From NCBI RefSeq assembly GCF_000406145.1, contig NZ_CM001976.1:1428730-1435214 (forward strand): DNA of 6,485 bases, in the 5' to 3' direction. The translations under genes were made by a program, and so were the position numbers. This DNA is from Dickeya dadantii NCPPB 898. GTDB lineage: Bacteria; Pseudomonadota; Gammaproteobacteria; Enterobacterales; Enterobacteriaceae. Below the pieces are notes generated by a model. It searched no databases. It saw nothing but the letters and a program-made list of their open reading frames with translations, and was not told where the DNA came from. Position 1 is the first letter of the stretch; every line of letters starts with the position of its first letter. This document shows positions 1,379 through 6,485 of the stretch, one piece after another.

Positions 1379-3416
1379 GTGGCTAACAGTACAGGATTGC
1401 AGTTTACCGTGAAAATCGGCGCATTGGCGGACACCACCTTCGCGGTGGTGGATTTCGAACTGAGTGAGGCGCTGAACCAGCCGTTTGCGCTGTCGCTGAG
1501 TCTCGCCAGCAGTCAGGCCGATATCGATTTCGGCGCGGTGCTGGACCAACCGTGCGAGCTGATGGTGTGGTACGAAGGCGCACTGCAACGCCGGGTCAGC
1601 GGTATCGTCAGCCGCTTTGCCCAGGGCGACACCGGCTTTCGCCGCACCCGCTATCAGGCCGAGGTGCGCCCGGCGCTGTGGCGGCTGGGGCTGCGTACCA
1701 ACGCCCGTATCTTCCAGACCAAAAAGCCGGATGAGATTATCACCGAACTTGCTGCAAGAAGCCGGGATCACCGATTTTGCCTTTGCCCTGCGCCACGACC
1801 ACGCGGTGCGCGAATACTGCGTGCAGTACCGCGAAAGCGACCTGGCGTTCATCCACCGGCTGGCGGCGGAAGAAGGGCTGTTCTACTTCCACGAATTCGA
1901 AGCCGACAAGCACCGGGTGGTGTTTGCCGACGACGCCGGCGCGCTGACCAAAGGCCCCGAGCTGTTTTTTAACCTGGCAACACAAGGGCTGACCGAAGGC
2001 GCCTACGTGCGCCGTTTCCGCTACGCCGAAGCGGTAAGCACCGCCGAGGTGGAACTGAAAGATTACTGTTTTAAAACCCCGGCCTACGGGCTGTCGCACA
2101 AAAAGACCAGTAACGAGCTGGAGCACCAGCGCGAATCCTACCAGCACTTCGACTACCCCGGTCGTTTTAAGCAAGATCCGAGCGGCAAGGCGTTTACCGG
2201 CTACCGACTGGACGCGCTGCGTGCGGATGCGATAACCGGTGTGGGGGAGTCCAACGCCGCCGAACTGCGGCCGGGCAGCGCTTTTACCCTGACTGAACAC
2301 CCGAACCCGGCGTTCAATCTGGCCTGGCAGGTGGTGGCGGTGACCCACAGCGGTCAGCAGCCACAGGCGCTGGAAGAGGAAAGCGGCGGCGAGCCGACCA
2401 CGCTCAGCAACAGCTTTGAGGTGGTGAAAGGATCCACCACCTGGCGCGCGGCGCTGCCGTACAAGCCGATGGTAGACGGCCCGCAGATTGCCACCGTGGT
2501 CGGCCCGGCGGGCGAAGAGATTTACTGCGATAAATTTGGCCGGGTGAAGCTGCAATTCCCGTGGGACCGCTACGGCGCCAGCGACGACCAGAGCTCCTGC
2601 TGGGTGCGGGTCAGTCAGGGCTGGGCCGGCGGGCAGTACGGGTTAATCGCCATTCCACGTATCGGCCATGAGGTGGTGGTGAGCTTTCTGGAGGGCGACC
2701 CGGACCAGCCGCTTATCACCGGCCGGACGTTCCATGCCACCAACCCCACGCCGTATGTGCTGCCGGAGCACAAAACACGCACTACGCTGCGTACCGATAC
2801 CCACAAAGGCAGCGGTTTCAACGAACTTCGTTTCGAAGATGAGGCCACCCGGGAGCAGATTTACCTGCACGCACAGAAAGACATGGACGCGGTGATCAAC
2901 AACATTCATCGCCAGAGCGTCGGGTTGGATCAGCATCTGAGTGTGGCGAACGACCAGTTCCAGCGGGTGGATCGCCATAGCCATCGCACCATCGGGCAGG
3001 ATGATTTTGAACAGATTGGGCAGGACCATCATCAATCGATTGGTCGCCATCTCGTACAGAGCATCACCCAGTCATTCAAGCGCTTTATCGGCGGCGGCGA
3101 GATCACCCGTATTGAAGGCAGCCGCCAGACTACGCTGTCTGGTTCGGAAGAGACGCTGATCGGCGCGCATCAGCGGGTGCTGGTCAATACCGACAGCTAC
3201 CTCAAGGCGGCGGATATCGTGCTGGAAGCCGGGCAGTCGCTGACTATCAAAGCACCCGGCGGATTTATCAAAATCGACGGCGCCGGCGTCACCATCTCCG
3301 GCACGGTGGTGAAAATCAACGACGGCGGTTCCGCAGGCGCGGGCACGGCGCCGGTGTCGATCGAGCCGGAGGCTCCCACCAGACCGACGCTGCCAGATGC
3401 GCCGGACCGGCGTTAA
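1379..3416 (+). pseudogene. vgrG: VgrG (TssI) spike protein gene with a +1 frame disruption near 1748-1751
   Basis: The 5' part (track ORF 1352-1972) reads (M)[43 protein letters not shown]...[36 protein letters not shown] and then turns into Arg/Pro-rich nonsense. VgrG-like sequence resumes one frame over (track ORF 1617-3416) as [47 protein letters not shown]. That frame continues through the gp5 OB-fold ([33 protein letters not shown]...[47 protein letters not shown]) and the beta-helix repeats to a stop at 3414-3416. The likely true start is GTG 1379, with GGAGG at 1367-1371 and a 7-nt spacer. ATG 1352 has no Shine-Dalgarno sequence. Removing one nucleotide from CTTG (1748-1751) gives a single 678-codon ORF. 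Confidence 0.88.
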
Positions 3417-3425
3417 GGAGTCACC

Positions 3426-4796
3426 ATGCCAGGAGCTGCGCGTTTAGGGGACAGCTGTGCCGGTCACGGCTGCTTTCCCGCCACCCCGGTGATTGCGGGC
3501 AGTGGCGATGTGATTATCAATGGCAAACCGGCGGCGCGTAAAGGCGATGCGGTGTTGCTGCACGCCTGCCCATGCCCGAATATGCCGCACGGGGTTCACA
3601 GCCGGGCGATTTCCGCCGGTTCTGGTACGGTGATCATCAACGGTAAGCTGGCCGCCCGTATCGGCGATGCCATCGGCTGTGGCGGCTCGGTGGCGGCCGG
3701 CAGCGGGGATGTGATTATTGGCGATACGCCTTACCAGTCGCCGGTTAAATCCTGTGCGGAACAGTCGGCGAAAAGCCGCGCTCCGCTGCTGGCGCTAACG
3801 CCGATGCTGCTGCCCGCCATGATGGAATGGGCAGCAACCGTCGAACTGCCGGTGCTGGATGAAGCGCTGACGGTATTACAGCGTAAGGATCGCTATCTGG
3901 CGCGCGCTAAGCTGGCGCAACAGGCGGCGACCATGCCGAGCCTGAAAGACGCCGCCACCCGACTGGCGTTTAACAACGACAGCATCTTGCGCGCCGAAGC
4001 GGCGCAGTATGTTTATCCGGTGGATGAATTTAGACGTAAGGTAAGGGCTGTTTTGCCAAAGCCTCCTGTTGGACTTGAGGTTATTGATATAAAGAGCTTT
4101 CCTAAAATTACTCCTAAGCAATTTACTGACCCAGACTCAGGATTTGGAGCAGCGCTATTTAAGTCATCTATTAATAATGAAACGATGTTGACATTTAGAG
4201 GAACCAATAATGGTGTAACAGGTGCTAAAGATTGGCTTACAAATGGGGCTCAAGGAATAGGATTTGAAACAGCTCAATATAATCAGGCAATGGATTTGGC
4301 AAAATTGATGAAGAGACTTGTATCTCCAGAACCTGTTATTGTTGGTCACTCTTTAGGGGGAGGGTTAGCTTCTGCTGCTGTTAGTGCAACCAAATTACCA
4401 GGGTATATTTTTAATGCTGCTGGTCTTCATGCCAACACTGTTGCTAGGCAACAAGGTGCTGATTTGGCTACTACCAGTTCCTTAATTAAAACTCAAGCAG
4501 TAGATGGCGAAATCCTTACTATGCTCCAATCCTATGGCAAAGTTGCTGTACCGGGTTTACTTTCTGGTGCGGGTGCTTTGATCGGGGGTAAGGTTGGGGC
4601 TATTGCTGGTGGAGTGGCTGGTATTACGACATTGTTAGCTGGCTCTCTTCCCAGCGCTTTAGGTGAGATGAAAACATTACCTAGTTCAGGGGGATCTCCA
4701 TTAGCCCGACACGGCATGGACCAAGTTGTAGCCGGTATTGAAAAAGAAAAGAAAGAAGATATTGGAAAAATTACCAGCACGCTTAAGGGGGCATAA
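3426..4796 (+). CDS. tle: PAAR-domain T6SS effector fused to a GxSxG alpha/beta-hydrolase (class-3-like lipase/phospholipase) toxin domain, 456 aa
   Basis: The N-terminus (aa 1-100) is a PAAR spike-tip domain: AARLGDSCAGHG...VIINGKPAARKGD...VIINGKLAARIGD...GSGDVIIGD, with Cys/His metal-ligand candidates. The C-terminus has lipase_3-type motifs: GFGAALFKS...MLTFRGTNNGVTGAKDWLTN, the nucleophile elbow VIVGHSLGGGLA (Ser309, nt 4350-4352), a candidate Asp360 (4503-4505) and a candidate His429 (4710-4712). AGGAG at 3416-3420 precedes the ATG, 9 nt after the vgrG stop. The symbol tle is used only in the generic sense of type VI lipase effector, and no Tle1-4 subfamily is assigned. Confidence 0.9.
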   Translation: MPGAARLGDSCAGHGCFPATPVIAGSGDVIINGKPAARKGDAVLLHACPCPNMPHGVHSRAISAGSGTVIINGKLAARIGDAIGCGGSVAAGSGDVIIGDTPYQSPVKSCAEQSAKSRAPLLALTPMLLPAMMEWAATVELPVLDEALTVLQRKDRYLARAKLAQQAATMPSLKDAATRLAFNNDSILRAEAAQYVYPVDEFRRKVRAVLPKPPVGLEVIDIKSFPKITPKQFTDPDSGFGAALFKSSINNETMLTFRGTNNGVTGAKDWLTNGAQGIGFETAQYNQAMDLAKLMKRLVSPEPVIVGHSLGGGLASAAVSATKLPGYIFNAAGLHANTVARQQGADLATTSSLIKTQAVDGEILTMLQSYGKVAVPGLLSGAGALIGGKVGAIAGGVAGITTLLAGSLPSALGEMKTLPSSGGSPLARHGMDQVVAGIEKEKKEDIGKITSTLKGA

Positions 4797-5575
4797 TGCG
4801 ATGGTTACAGAAAATCAAATGGATCGCCGTATTGTTTGCGGGAATATTGACCGCCTGTCAGGCCGGAGGGCACAGCATGCAGGCCAGTGAATTGTTCCAG
4901 CCACCGATGGCGGCTTTATTGCAGACCATCCGCAAAGGTGATGAAGCGGAAGCACGGCGCCAGCTAGCCCAGGGGCTGAATCTGAATATTCAGGGTAAAG
5001 AAGGGATTACGCCGCTGCTGTGGCTGATTTATGAAACGCAGGATAAGAACGCAGTACGGCTGGCGTTAAAACTGGGGGCCGATCCAAATTACAAAGATGG
5101 CTCAGGCGACAGTGCGGTAAACCGGGTATCCGGTGTGCGTGATCCGGACTGGTTGCGCATTGTTCTGGATGCCGGGGGAAATCCGAATGCCATTGGGAGA
5201 CTTGAGCAACCGGCGTTATTTAGTGCGATAGGTGAAGAGCGCTGGGCCGATATCAAACTGTTGGTAGAGCGAGGGGCAGATATAAATTTAAAAGATAGTT
5301 TGGATAGAAACAGTGTGTTGTATGCGGGGTATTTGAATAAATATGAAATCGCATATTGGCTAATAGAAAAGGGTGCTGATATTACCATATATGATGCAAC
5401 AGGTAGTAATATGGCATGGACTGTGGAAGATAGTTTATCTGTTATGCCACATAATGCAGCGTCGTATCCGTGGGGCATTAAAGTAAGAGAATTGCTACAA
5501 CAACGCGGTATTAAATTTCCCCCCTTATCTCCGGCAGAAGTACGGGAGCGCCGTGCTAAAGGGGAGCCGCTTTGA
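4796..5575 (+). CDS. tli: Ankyrin-repeat lipoprotein, putative cognate immunity protein for the lipase effector, 259 aa
   Basis: The start ATG overlaps the effector stop (TAATG, 4794-4798), which suggests translational coupling. The N-terminus MRWLQKIKWIAVLFAGILTAC is a lipoprotein signal peptide with lipobox L-T-A-C (Cys21, 4856-4858). The body contains several ANK repeats (GITPLLWLIYE..NAVRLALKLGADPNYKD; DWLRIVLDAGGNPNA; RWADIKLLVERGADINLKD; YEIAYWLIEKGADITIYD). The position directly 3' of a periplasm-acting lipase toxin fits an immunity role. Confidence 0.88.
   Translation: MRWLQKIKWIAVLFAGILTACQAGGHSMQASELFQPPMAALLQTIRKGDEAEARRQLAQGLNLNIQGKEGITPLLWLIYETQDKNAVRLALKLGADPNYKDGSGDSAVNRVSGVRDPDWLRIVLDAGGNPNAIGRLEQPALFSAIGEERWADIKLLVERGADINLKDSLDRNSVLYAGYLNKYEIAYWLIEKGADITIYDATGSNMAWTVEDSLSVMPHNAASYPWGIKVRELLQQRGIKFPPLSPAEVRERRAKGEPL
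4852..5290 (+). repeat. Direct repeat copy A (about 435 bp, 5' two-thirds of tli copy 1)
   Basis: My hand alignment to 5616-6054 (offset 764 bp) finds about 26 mismatches and no indels, or about 94% identity. Identity starts within a few nt of the lipobox Cys codon and drops abruptly after ...GCAGATAT(A/C)AATTTA. Confidence 0.85.
4865..4879 (+). promoter_or_regulatory. Internal ribosome-binding site plus in-frame ATG (Met28) just after the lipobox Cys of tli copy 1
   Basis: GGAGG at 4865-4869 is followed by the 7-nt spacer GCACAGC and ATG at 4877-4879. The ATG is in frame, 7 codons after Cys21. The Shine-Dalgarno sequence is stronger than the one at the annotated start. Confidence 0.55.
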
Positions 5576-6339
5576 GGTGGTGGCATTGTCTGCTGGCTTG
5601 CGTGCCGCTGTTAAGCGCCTGTCAGGCAGGAGGGCACAGCATGCAGGCCAGTGAGTTGTTCCAGCCACCGATGGCGGCCTTATTGCAGGCCATCCGCAAA
5701 GGTGATGAAGCGGAAGCACGGCGTCAGCTAGCCCAGGGGCTGAATCTGAATATTCACGGTAAAGAAGGGATTACGCCGCTGCTGTGGTTGATTTATGAAA
5801 CGCAGGATAAGAACGCGGTACGGCTGGCGCTAAAGCTGGGCGCTGACCCGAATTATAAAGATGGTTCAGGCGACAGCGCGGTAAACCGGGTATCCGGTGT
5901 GCGTGATCCGGACTGGTTGCGCATTGTTCTGGATGCCGGGGGAAATCCGAATGCCATTGGGAGACTTGGTCAACCGGCATTATTGAGTGCGATCAATGAA
6001 GAGCGCTGGGCCGATATCAAACTGTTGGTAGAGCGTGGGGCAGATATCAATTTAGCAGACAGGCAGAAAAGAAATAGCGCGCTTTATGCTGCGTATATCA
6101 ATCAATATGAGATTGTTTATTGGCTAATAGAGCGTGGTGCTAAAGTCGACACTTATTCTGCCACCGGTGGCAGCCTGGCCTGGCGGGTATATGAAAGCCT
6201 GTCAATAATGGCGCAGAATTCGCCACAATATCCCTGGTTGTTAAAGGTTAAACAGCAGTTACAACAGCGCGGTATTAATTTCCCCCCGCTGTCTCCGGCA
6301 GAGGTACAGGATAAATGGGAACGGGGTGAATTCCTTTAA
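5572..6339 (+). CDS. tli: Second ankyrin-repeat lipoprotein paralog (putative additional or orphan immunity protein), 255 aa from a TTG start
   Basis: This is a paralog of the upstream gene. The only in-frame start that includes a signal peptide is TTG 5572-5574, which overlaps the upstream stop (TTGA, 5572-5575). GGGGAG lies 5 nt upstream. The signal peptide is short: MRWWHCLLACVPLLSAC, with lipobox L-S-A-C (Cys17, 5620-5622). The 5' end is uncertain, and translation may begin mainly at the internal ATG 5641. Confidence 0.8.
   Translation: MRWWHCLLACVPLLSACQAGGHSMQASELFQPPMAALLQAIRKGDEAEARRQLAQGLNLNIHGKEGITPLLWLIYETQDKNAVRLALKLGADPNYKDGSGDSAVNRVSGVRDPDWLRIVLDAGGNPNAIGRLGQPALLSAINEERWADIKLLVERGADINLADRQKRNSALYAAYINQYEIVYWLIERGAKVDTYSATGGSLAWRVYESLSIMAQNSPQYPWLLKVKQQLQQRGINFPPLSPAEVQDKWERGEFL
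5616..6054 (+). repeat. Direct repeat copy B (about 435 bp, 5' two-thirds of tli copy 2)
   Basis: This is the partner of 4852-5290. See that entry for the alignment details. Confidence 0.85.
5629..5643 (+). promoter_or_regulatory. Internal ribosome-binding site plus in-frame ATG (Met24) just after the lipobox Cys of tli copy 2
   Basis: The arrangement matches copy 1: GGAGG at 5629-5633, the 7-nt spacer GCACAGC, and ATG at 5641-5643, 7 codons after Cys17. It is conserved even though the upstream signal-peptide codons are unrelated between the copies. Confidence 0.55.
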
Positions 6340-6485
6340 AAAAGACATCGCGGTAATTCTGTCCGTATTTCAATAGCAATATATTATTTTTTTTCGTCAT
6401 CGTGGTGGGGTTTATTTCCTCAGCCGAGGTTTGTCGCTGTTCTCATTGTCCGGTTTTTTCTTATTTAAATAACGATTAATTATCC

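Follow-up and report, generated by a model that had tools for sequence, protein, structure and literature searches.

How can two neighbouring immunity genes be nearly identical along their 5' two-thirds while their last thirds have so much less in common? The question is raised by a stretch of 6,485 nucleotides from Dickeya dadantii NCPPB 898 (contig NZ_CM001976.1, positions 1,428,730 to 1,435,214), which we call the window and in whose positions all coordinates are given. From its sequence similarities we identify the window as an hcp-vgrG-PAAR-lipase locus of a type VI secretion system (T6SS) with two ankyrin lipoprotein immunity genes, belonging to the Tle6/Tli family of Enterobacter cloacae. 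The lipase gene is referred to as tle and the immunity genes as tli copy 1 (4796-5575, 259 aa; W_1 in the comparisons) and tli copy 2 (5572-6339, 255 aa, with a TTG start; W_2). An earlier note on this DNA had proposed that the toxin core and copy 1 arrived together and that part of copy 1 was later homogenised with copy 2. We compared 26 related loci and analysed the modules of 48 tli copies, taken from 22 of the loci. An exact-sequence look-up of copy 1 in the contig index gave no match, and further D. dadantii strains (L024, GCA_037136695; L025; L026) were reached via the homologues P0006, P0007 and P0009. Overall, the explanation that we consider probable is that the tli genes form a mosaic array, in which the lipase core and its immunity gene would have been imported jointly, resident sequence would have overwritten the stretch between their divergent parts, and the fifth and sixth ankyrin repeats (ANK5-6) would set specificity.

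A step in identity between the copies

Copy 1 can be divided into a signal peptide (4796-4852), an N module running from the lipobox Cys through ANK1-4 (4853-5290), a variable module comprising ANK5-6 (5291-5500, type V1) and a conserved 3' patch (QQRGIKFPPLSPAEV) with tail (5501-5575). The corresponding parts of copy 2 lie at 5572-5616, 5617-6054, 6055-6264 (type V2) and 6265-6339, where the array ends with a TAA stop. All of these parts are on the plus strand, as are hcp, vgrG and tle.

In an ungapped register (offset of 764 nt), 4852-5290 and 5616-6054 differ at 26 of 439 positions, which corresponds to 94.1% identity without indels and agrees with the gap-free tract of about 94% described in the earlier note. 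The boundary indeed lies at the lipobox, but identity sets in at 4847, two to three codons ahead of the Cys21 codon (4856-4858) at which it had been placed. Ahead of the tract the signal-peptide codons (4796-4851) are 25% identical in the same register. Behind it, identity over 5291-5575 (285 nt) amounts to 62.8%, with 61% in the variable module and a return to 82% at 5501-5545, the re-conserved patch that had already been noticed. At the protein level the tract contains 5 differences in 146 residues (against an earlier count of about 7 in 145), while residues 166-235 are 54% and residues 166-259 57% identical, close to the 55-60% given before.

Base composition changes along with identity. 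The GC content of the tract is 54.4% and 55.1% in the two copies, with 60% at 4861-4920, against 34% at 5281-5460, 42% in the 3' part of copy 1 and 43.6% in the toxin core (3981-4796). At third codon positions (GC3) the tract reaches 0.55, which is intermediate between vgrG (0.76) or the N-terminal part of tle (0.71) and the AT-rich islands (0.27-0.30). The values quoted in the earlier note for this contrast are correct. Nevertheless, the N module exceeds the variable module in GC in all 40 tabulated copies; given this family-wide step and the intermediate GC3, host-like GC was dropped as stand-alone proof that the tract is resident. The divergence profile against D. undicola, given below, is the stronger evidence.

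Evidence for recombination

The step is equally visible at synonymous sites. By the Nei-Gojobori method the tract of copy 1 and copy 2 shows a synonymous distance (dS) of 0.21, a proportion of synonymous differences (pS) of 0.19 and a nonsynonymous distance (dN) of 0.02, whereas for residues 166-235 pS rises to 0.82 (saturated) and dN to 0.34. Since synonymous sites show the same step, protein-level selection alone cannot explain the mosaic.

Neighbor-joining trees (300 bootstraps), built separately for the N module and the variable region, conflict with each other. For the N module, W_1 is grouped with W_2 in 100% of the bootstraps, and copies 4 and 5 of D. oryzae (L002_4 and L002_5) are grouped in 86%. 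For the variable region, W_1 is joined with D. undicola copy 1 (L001_1) and D. oryzae copy 4 (L002_4) in 100%, and the pair of W_1 and W_2 is recovered in 0%. The underlying identities follow the same pattern: the N module of copy 1 has 94.1% identity with that of copy 2, against 90.9% with the D. undicola orthologue and 88.4% with the one in D. oryzae, whereas the variable region of copy 1 is 61% identical to copy 2, 96% to D. undicola copy 1 and 94% to the orphan copy 4 of D. oryzae. With W_1 taken as the child of W_2 and the D. undicola orthologue, a maximum chi-square analysis of triplet-informative sites places breakpoints at 4847 and 5278 (chi-square 62.5; reached by 0 of 500 permutations, p<=0.002).

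Taken together, these comparisons argue that the shared tract is a product of recombination or gene conversion and not of constraint. The homogenisation claimed in the earlier note is borne out, both by the contrast between a dS of 0.21 and saturation and by the conflicting bootstraps of 100%. Breakpoints are also supported by the maximum chi-square analysis, and the alternative of a uniform divergence is not.

Origin of the segments of copy 1

A sliding identity profile against D. undicola gives approximately 89-90% in vgrG and the 5' part of tle, 97-99% in the lipase core (4113-4790), 88-91% over the N module of copy 1 and 98% at 5283-5420, followed by a drop. The dS values against D. undicola are 0.57 for vgrG, 0.43 for the N-terminal part of tle, 0.095 for the lipase core, 0.455 for the N module and 0.187 for the variable region. 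Judged from these distances, the lipase core and the variable region form two islands that are younger than the species background, with the stretch between them at background level. Compared with the D. dadantii strains L024 and L025, the window is 98-100% identical in the flanks up to about 3990, after which identity falls to 50-83% in the lipase core, rises to 93-98% at 4767-5240 (the end of tle with the signal peptide and N module of copy 1) and falls again to 52-73% in the variable region. Thus both islands switch together within the species. The joint arrival of toxin core and copy 1, as suggested in the earlier note, is supported by this joint switch as well as by the low dS of both islands.

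To trace the segments of copy 1, it was painted with its nearest neighbour in steps of 60 nt. The first of these (4796-4855) is identical at 60/60 positions to L024_1, a position-1 copy from another strain with a different toxin. At 4856-5095 the match is to L026_3 (another strain's orthologue of copy 2; 60/60 in each step), at 5096-5185 copy 1 is closest to W_2, and at 5186-5545 it matches L026_2, the orthologue of copy 1 in variable type (57-60/60 per step). Over the whole tract the identity of copy 1 amounts to 98% with L026_3, 95% with L026_2 and 94% with W_2. As L026_3 is closer than W_2, the present copy 2 is not supported as the conversion donor: the best match is a copy-2-type gene of another strain, and not the resident copy 2 as such that had been held responsible. 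The N module of copy 2 is itself a patchwork, with best matches spread over several D. dadantii copies. The matches of copy 1 show that exchange occurred between copy-1-type and copy-2-type genes. Copy 1 joins the signal peptide of a D. dadantii position-1 copy to an N module that agrees over 240 bp with the copy-2-type gene found in another strain, and to a variable module that also occurs in D. undicola and D. oryzae.

Concerted evolution of tandem paralogues typically leaves a converted tract that is more alike between paralogues than between orthologues, with sharp boundaries and homogenised synonymous sites. The tli genes differ from this general picture in that conversion halts before the segment that differs between alleles. 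Presumably it halts there since recombinants with a mismatched toxin and immunity protein are removed by self-intoxication or by loss of activation.

Modular arrays in related genomes

A genome scan yielded 18 related loci in Dickeya, Brenneria, Samsonia, Pectobacterium, Erwinia and Aeromonas, all of which consist of hcp-vgrG-PAAR-lipase followed by one to six tandem tli genes. The copy beside tle always has an ATG start and a signal peptide of the form 'M(Q/R)WL..KW'. In Dickeya, Brenneria, Pectobacterium and Samsonia, each downstream copy begins at a TTG that overlaps the stop of the gene before it (TTGA) and has a signal peptide of the 'MRWWHWLLAC' type; in Erwinia and Aeromonas the downstream copies start with ATG. 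The window follows these rules: copy 1, of the ATG class and with lipobox LTAC, overlaps the stop of tle by one base, and copy 2, of the TTG class and with lipobox LSAC, has its TTG (5572-5574) overlapping the TGA stop of copy 1. The signal peptide of copy 2 is 96-98% identical to those of downstream copies in other D. dadantii strains and 89% to those in D. oryzae. Consequently, the signal peptides of W_1 and W_2 are unrelated because their class follows the position in the array, which also explains why homology begins at the lipobox. The signal-peptide codons are thus as unrelated as the earlier note described them, though their divergence follows array position and runs through the whole family.

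N types and variable types combine freely across loci, and column entropies over the 48 copies show the N module to be more conserved than the variable region at the protein level. The mosaic, which had been interpreted as a one-off conversion event, is a recurrent architecture of the family.

Two further elements of the array may serve translation. An internal ATG (Met28) is invariant in 48 of 48 tli copies from six genera, and 40 of the 48 have GGAG or GAGG about 7 nt upstream. In copy 1 this is a Shine-Dalgarno-like GGAGGG with ATG (4865-4879), in the N module of copy 2 an AGGAGG (5628-5633) with ATG (5641-5643); in both copies the site lies directly behind the lipobox, as the first feature of the shared tract. 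Many public annotations of downstream copies take the internal ATG as start (232-aa forms), which leaves out the signal peptide initiated at TTG. For E. cloacae it has been proposed that internal starts give a cytosolic Tli and that this form is needed to activate the lipase (bioRxiv 10.1101/2023.03.28.534661). The conservation of the site suggests that it may yield a cytosolic Tli isoform in the present family too. The other element is the tail of copy 1: its final codons (5546-5575; AAAGGGGAGCCGCTTTGA) also encode the ribosome-binding site of copy 2 (AGGGGAG at 5560-5566), its TTG start and the stop overlap. The tail of copy 2, which is not followed by a tli, differs from the copy 1 tail (GAACGGGGTGAATTCCTTTAA). 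Given that the copy 1 tail carries the start signals of copy 2, part of the 3' conservation in the arrays may serve translational coupling and not the protein.

Several individual loci show additional features. The longest arrays are found in D. oryzae ZYY5 (six tandem tli; L002, 3712-8293) and Brenneria alni (five; L003, 4397-8244), with 4-nt overlaps and all genes intact. Several variable types of these two arrays adjoin tle in other genera, as V3 in Pectobacterium (L007 and L008), or in another locus, as V7 in Brenneria roseae (L015). The second tli of Pectobacterium polonicum (L018, 6634-7431) has a 10-residue insertion in ANK2 (PLRGVKFPPL) that repeats the conserved C-terminal motif RGVKFPPL, and looks like the scar of an aberrant recombination between 3' patch and N module. 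In Brenneria rubrifaciens (L004, 3851-5216) the tle homologue is split into three pieces in different frames while two downstream tli are intact; this tle is probably a pseudogene, and immunity appears to have been kept after decay of the effector. The second tli of this locus reads through into a 14-residue extension. Finally, D. undicola (L001, 7535-8225) has about 690 bp between its second tli and the flank matching window 6367-6483, for which the window has no counterpart. This extra stretch may be a tli remnant, as a partial D. undicola ankyrin protein of 164 aa (P0113) is among the listed proteins.

Orphan genes and proposed displacement

Comparison of the D. dadantii strains shows that the same allele can occupy different positions. 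L024_1, beside tle, and L025_2, in second position, agree at 99% in the N module and fully (100%) in the variable region, but belong to different classes of signal peptide. The variable region of W_1 is 100% identical to that of L026_2, which stands second behind a different tle-tli pair. For W_2 the variable region is 97% identical to L026_3 and 86-87% to L024_1 and L025_2, and every relative of W_2 above 88% protein identity belongs to the downstream class of 255 aa. The variable region of copy 2 looks composite in these comparisons. As a pair, W_1 and W_2 are colinear and gap-free over 1.49 kb with copies 4-5 of D. oryzae, and colinear over 1.64 kb with copies 2-3 of L026.

Orphans seem to be maintained by selection. 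Reading frames are intact in all 48 tli copies; the variable region yields dN 0.006 and dS 0.36 for W_1 against the D. oryzae orphan L002_4, and dN 0.097 and dS 1.67 for W_2 against L002_5. With dN far below dS, purifying selection on the orphans is indicated. The idea in the earlier note that copy 2 is an orphan immunity gene gains from the findings that the variable type of copy 1 is an orphan in L026 and that the cognate allele of L024 is an orphan in L025, but for the type of W_2 an exact partner in position 1 was not found.

The array fits the sequential displacement model put forward for Vibrio cholerae (Kirchberger et al. 2017, PMC5361080). Both systems have orphans downstream of the effector-immunity pair, alleles that are cognate in one strain and orphan in the other, a conserved 5' effector or spike part as homology arm, and modules that move horizontally between species. 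The Vibrio arrays, however, contain mostly unrelated immunity families, for which homology-facilitated illegitimate recombination was invoked (PMC5361080), whereas those of Dickeya are made of one family with a conserved N module of 440 bp. As this module is common to the array members, ordinary homologous recombination could supply the right-hand crossover. Further differences from Vibrio are that Dickeya-type tli genes abut with 4-nt overlaps, show no effector remnants and undergo partial concerted evolution. A similar comparison can be made with polymorphic toxins such as Rhs and CdiA-CT/CdiI (Zhang et al. 2012, PMC3482391). In these, as in the present locus, the N-terminal part serves delivery and is conserved, the C-terminal toxin is variable and linked to its immunity gene, cassettes recombine and the variable parts are AT-rich. 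In those systems, though, the immunity genes belonging to different cassettes are usually whole genes unrelated to each other (PMC3482391), while the variable unit of tli is sub-genic and consists of two ankyrin repeats with conserved flanks on both sides.

Repeats associated with the lipase allele

Over 20 loci, which are phylogenetically non-independent, distances between Tle C-terminal domains correlate with those between the adjacent Tli variable regions (Mantel r=0.77, p=2e-4), and the correlation persists in partial tests, with r=0.70 once the Tle N-terminal part is accounted for and r=0.67 once the N module is. The Pectobacterium loci are informative in particular: the Tle N-terminal part (97-100%) and the Tli N module (94-99%) are nearly the same in all strains, and the classes of the Tle C-terminal part (L007 with L008; L011, L012 and L017 with L006 nearby; L010 with L018) coincide exactly with those of the variable region. 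For pairs that have the same N module, variable-region identity correlates with that in Tle residues 205-345 at r=0.83, a descriptive value given that such pairs are non-independent. Grouping Tle C-terminal domains at 88% identity was abandoned as too coarse, since Pectobacterium alleles with different 205-345 patches then fall together and since it joins L003 and L015 despite their different position-1 variable types; class tables and the 205-345 patch were used instead.

In the AlphaFold2 model of copy 1, residues 166-235 correspond to ANK5-6. For the E. cloacae complex it has been described that the inner helices alpha8, alpha10 and alpha12 make most contacts and that the loop between repeats 2 and 3 also contacts the lipase (PMC11470151). 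On our own mapping of the helix numbers onto the model, these helices would be the first helices of ANK4, ANK5 and ANK6. As two of the three described contact helices would then lie in ANK5-6, the C-terminal repeats are candidate specificity determinants. Three of the five differences within the tract (E137G, F142L and G146N) are located on or beside the inner helix of ANK4. The earlier note had assigned specificity to the divergent C-terminal repeats, and this stands in so far as variable classes match the Tle C-terminal classes in Pectobacterium and map to ANK5-6; specificity is probably not confined to these repeats, and ANK4 and the ANK2-3 loop may contribute. On the sequence evidence the C-terminal repeats are the main candidate for determining which lipase is bound, though not the sole one.

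Proposed history and competing explanations

Sequence comparison shows each tli gene to be built of four parts, whose histories are separate. The signal peptide is set by position, with ATG beside tle and TTG overlapping the previous stop further downstream. The N module of about 440 bp (lipobox to ANK1-4) is kept alike within genome and species by homologous recombination or gene conversion, whereas the variable module of about 210 bp (ANK5-6) is inherited with the lipase-core allele and moves between species. The conserved 3' patch and tail hold the ribosome-binding site for the gene that follows, together with its start codon. As to the history of the window, lipase core and copy 1 were probably imported as one cassette, after which resident sequence overwrote the stretch between the islands. 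More generally, the N module could serve as right-hand homology arm for incoming tle-tli cassettes, by which the previous immunity gene is pushed downstream as an orphan; a crossover inside the N module would also explain the switch in signal-peptide class. ANK5-6, with some input from the ANK4 inner helix, would set the lipase allele that is bound, and copy 2 would be an expressed orphan that protects against a lipase allele absent from the window strain. The internal Shine-Dalgarno-like site with its ATG would produce a cytosolic Tli isoform as proposed for E. cloacae, and the linked islands would presumably be preserved by selection against mismatched toxin-immunity pairs.

That the copies have a single history without recombination, with strong purifying selection on the 5' two-thirds and fast evolution of the 3' third under relaxed or diversifying selection, is very improbable. 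Such a history agrees with the better protein-level conservation of the N module in all 48 copies and with its higher GC in all 40 tabulated ones, but not with the synonymous step (pS 0.19 in the N module against 0.82 in the variable region), nor with the grouping of the N module by genome and of the variable region by type (100% bootstrap each). Moreover, the variable region of copy 1 is 94-100% identical to other species and strains, to which its N module is less similar than to that of its neighbour. Synonymous saturation of the variable region likewise speaks against a recent tandem duplication of copy 1 into copy 2, or the reverse, followed by rapid divergence of the 3' third under positive selection. 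The two genes are certainly adjacent, measure 259 and 255 codons and are 94% identical over 439 nt without indels. However, V1 pre-exists in D. undicola, D. oryzae and D. dadantii L026, and V2 in D. oryzae and D. dadantii L024, L025 and L026, with an adjacent V1-V2 pair at positions 4-5 of the D. oryzae array and 2-3 of that of L026, which leaves a recent duplication with hardly any credit. An assembly artefact, in which short reads of near-identical tandem repeats were collapsed or mis-joined, could be suspected from common runs of about 90 identical bases and from the apparent frameshift in vgrG, which could be a sequencing error. We regard it as extremely unlikely: both copies have counterparts that round to 100% protein identity in NCBI records of D. 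dadantii, on contigs of 4.8-5.0 Mb; the complete chromosome CP077422 has the gene pair in colinear order over 1.6 kb (95.7%), and D. oryzae has it over 1.49 kb without gaps; and frames, overlaps and lipoboxes are intact.

More weight should be given to a single import that left donor patches (lipase core and variable region) amid retained recipient sequence (signal peptide and N module), with no later conversion between paralogues. Mismatch repair or multiple strand exchanges could produce such a patchwork at once. In its favour, 4767-5240, including the position-1 signal peptide, is 93-100% identical across D. dadantii strains with different toxin alleles, as retained recipient DNA would be, and a downstream paralogue could not have supplied the signal peptide of copy 1. 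On the other hand, 4856-5095 is identical to L026_3 and not to position-1 copies or to the variable-region orthologue L026_2, and paralogues of D. oryzae also cluster by genome, which points to exchange between array members. This course of events, which differs from the preferred one in no more than the order and number of steps, is rather unlikely but should be kept in mind.

Import followed by overwriting remains the account we prefer, and several points weigh against it. The same islands would be expected if one import had been interspersed with stretches of recipient DNA. The direction and number of conversion events cannot be fixed; the history is reticulate and may have run between strains and not strictly within the genome. 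No position-1 gene with exactly the variable region of W_2 was found, the nearest being L024_1 (P0007) with 88% protein identity. Concerning specificity, the N module correlates with the Tle C-terminal domain when controlling for the variable region (partial r=0.66), it occurs in two deep types (A and B) differing in the ANK2-3 loop, a contact site in E. cloacae, and the Mantel and correlation statistics have the non-independence mentioned above. In addition, vgrG is apparently frameshifted in the window strain, and the effector may not be deliverable.

The lipase and its immunity protein

Tle6-type phospholipase effectors form a group to which E. cloacae Tle and S. marcescens Slp belong, and the assignment of the window genes to the Tle6/Tli family is based on several matches. 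In a phmmer search of PDB sequences, residues 154-451 of the tle product align with residues 15-311 of the E. cloacae T6SS lipase effector (7UBZ_B, E=6.2e-28), with the motifs GHSLGGG (nucleophile elbow, GxSxG) and RHGMDQ in register and the catalytic His near the C-terminus. Over 17 aligned Tle sequences GHSLGGG and RHGMDQV are invariant. Pfam lipase and hydrolase matches to the tle product were all weak and below cut-offs. Arg160, Glu439 and Lys442 of the window lipase align with the crosslink residues Arg180, Glu458 and Lys461 of E. cloacae Tle (numbering derived from the chain offset and PMC11470151); this alignment does not by itself indicate that an Arg-Lys methylglyoxal crosslink would form in the window lipase. 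The lipase also contains a hydrophobic Gly/Ala-rich stretch of about 40 residues (GKVAVPGLLSGAGALIGGKVGAIAGGVAGITTLLAGSLPSALG; window about 4510-4650, Tle residues about 362-408), present in 17 of 17 aligned Tle sequences; in the E. cloacae chain, which is gapped there, the stretch is much shorter. It looks like a glycine-zipper or membrane-insertion segment.

For the immunity proteins, Ank_2 and other Ank families of Pfam match both copies. The AlphaFold2 model of copy 1 (32-sequence alignment; mean predicted local distance difference test 92.4) consists of six ankyrin helix pairs, and its best structural matches by Foldseek are E. cloacae Tli 9CYS_I and 7UBZ_A (E about 1e-12, template modelling score 0.76). 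The lipobox Cys is found in 48 of 48 tli copies, and reading the sequence shows a hydrophobic N-terminus before LTAC (copy 1) and LSAC (copy 2). In every related locus that has tle, tli lies directly downstream of it.

The group was proposed as Tle6 with Tli immunity by Jensen et al. (PMC11470151), who noted PAAR-fused Dickeya homologues linked to ankyrin genes; arrays and mosaicism were not described. The locus thus resembles the Tle/Tli pair of E. cloacae ATCC 13047 (Jensen et al. 2023, bioRxiv 10.1101/2023.03.28.534661; 2024, PMC11470151; PDB 7UBZ, 9CYS) in its homologous lipase, in a lipoprotein of six ankyrin repeats encoded directly downstream, and in an in-frame ATG just past the signal peptide that could yield a cytosolic isoform. 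It differs in that Dickeya Tli is only about 27% identical in sequence to E. cloacae Tli, in that the effector is fused to PAAR and not to the N-terminal domain of the E. cloacae effector, and in that, unlike the account in the E. cloacae papers, the immunity genes form tandem arrays of one to six homologous copies with modular mosaicism.

Layout of the locus

Genes in the window were called from the open reading frame (ORF) listing and Pfam scans. The T6SS tube protein gene hcp (695-1213, 172 aa) matches T6SS_HCP (E=1e-32) and is 98% identical in D. undicola. It is followed by the spike gene vgrG (1379-3416), which is in two frames, with Phage_GPD, Phage_base_V and Gp5_trimer_C matched across both ORFs (1352-1972 and 1617-3416). 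Aligned to the intact 678-aa vgrG of D. dadantii L024 and L026, the frame break is one extra base near 1749, in a locally diverged patch (1710-1990, 80-90% identity). Either this is a real frameshift, which would make the spike gene a pseudogene and put delivery of the lipase in question, or it is a sequencing error. The vgrG of L025 has another change of 1 nt, a deletion near the position matching 3279.

The tle gene (3426-4796) encodes a PAAR protein of 456 aa. Its 5' part (3426-4049; PAAR_motif E=1e-18, GC3 0.71) comprises the PAAR domain and a linker and would form the conserved left homology arm, being 98-100% identical among D. dadantii strains up to about 3990-4050. The lipase core, a Tle6-type alpha/beta-hydrolase by its match to 7UBZ_B, is the first AT-rich variable island (4050-4766, GC3 0.27); the second is the variable module of copy 1 (GC3 0.30).

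In three other D. dadantii strains the locus has amn on one side and, on the other, two DUF4123 genes with an rhs gene behind them. From their position relative to L024, the first approximately 420 nt of the window (minus strand) are taken to be the 5' part of amn. The amn-hcp intergenic region differs by an indel of about 145 bp between the window (about 630) and L024 (2695-2839), with both sides about 99% identical. Behind the array, the flank at 6340-6485 shares 97% identity with L024 and L026. A consensus scan of 3300-6485 for promoters and terminators gave no more sites than shuffled sequences, and lends no support to separate transcription of copy 2 or to a terminator after it. Short direct and inverted repeats (D2-D4, I1-I4) look like chance or PAAR-internal matches and were discarded.

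Implications

Tle6/Tli pairs, orphan arrays and gene conversion are already known; the mechanism seen at this locus is the concerted evolution of one conserved module within a polymorphic array of effector and immunity genes. Going further, it might be speculated that the tli arrays of Dickeya, Pectobacterium and Brenneria act as a cassette system, in which the N module and the short 3' patch are recombination arms, so that ordinary homologous recombination could copy or swap ANK5-6 modules with matched lipase cores among positions and species. Mismatches would be purged by self-intoxication or failed activation, and orphans would form a reservoir for re-pairing besides giving passive protection, while their cytosolic isoforms could modulate activation of the resident lipase. 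This extended scheme is a tentative one, to which we give a small chance.

The likely specificity determinants of Tle6/Tli are narrowed to about 70 residues, namely ANK5-6 and a few positions of ANK4, and strains that have already been sequenced hold natural chimeras suited to tests of specificity. Since all array members have the conserved module, immunity arrays could arise by ordinary homologous recombination alone, a different route from the Vibrio model with its illegitimate recombination. Two linked divergent islands across a homogenised interval are the pattern expected if selection opposes the breaking of toxin-immunity pairs. In E. cloacae, Tli is an activator of its lipase as well as the protein that neutralises it, for which reason the constraints on pairing may be unusually strong in the Dickeya locus. 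Finally, the differences in tle and tli alleles within D. dadantii would predict which strains can exclude each other.

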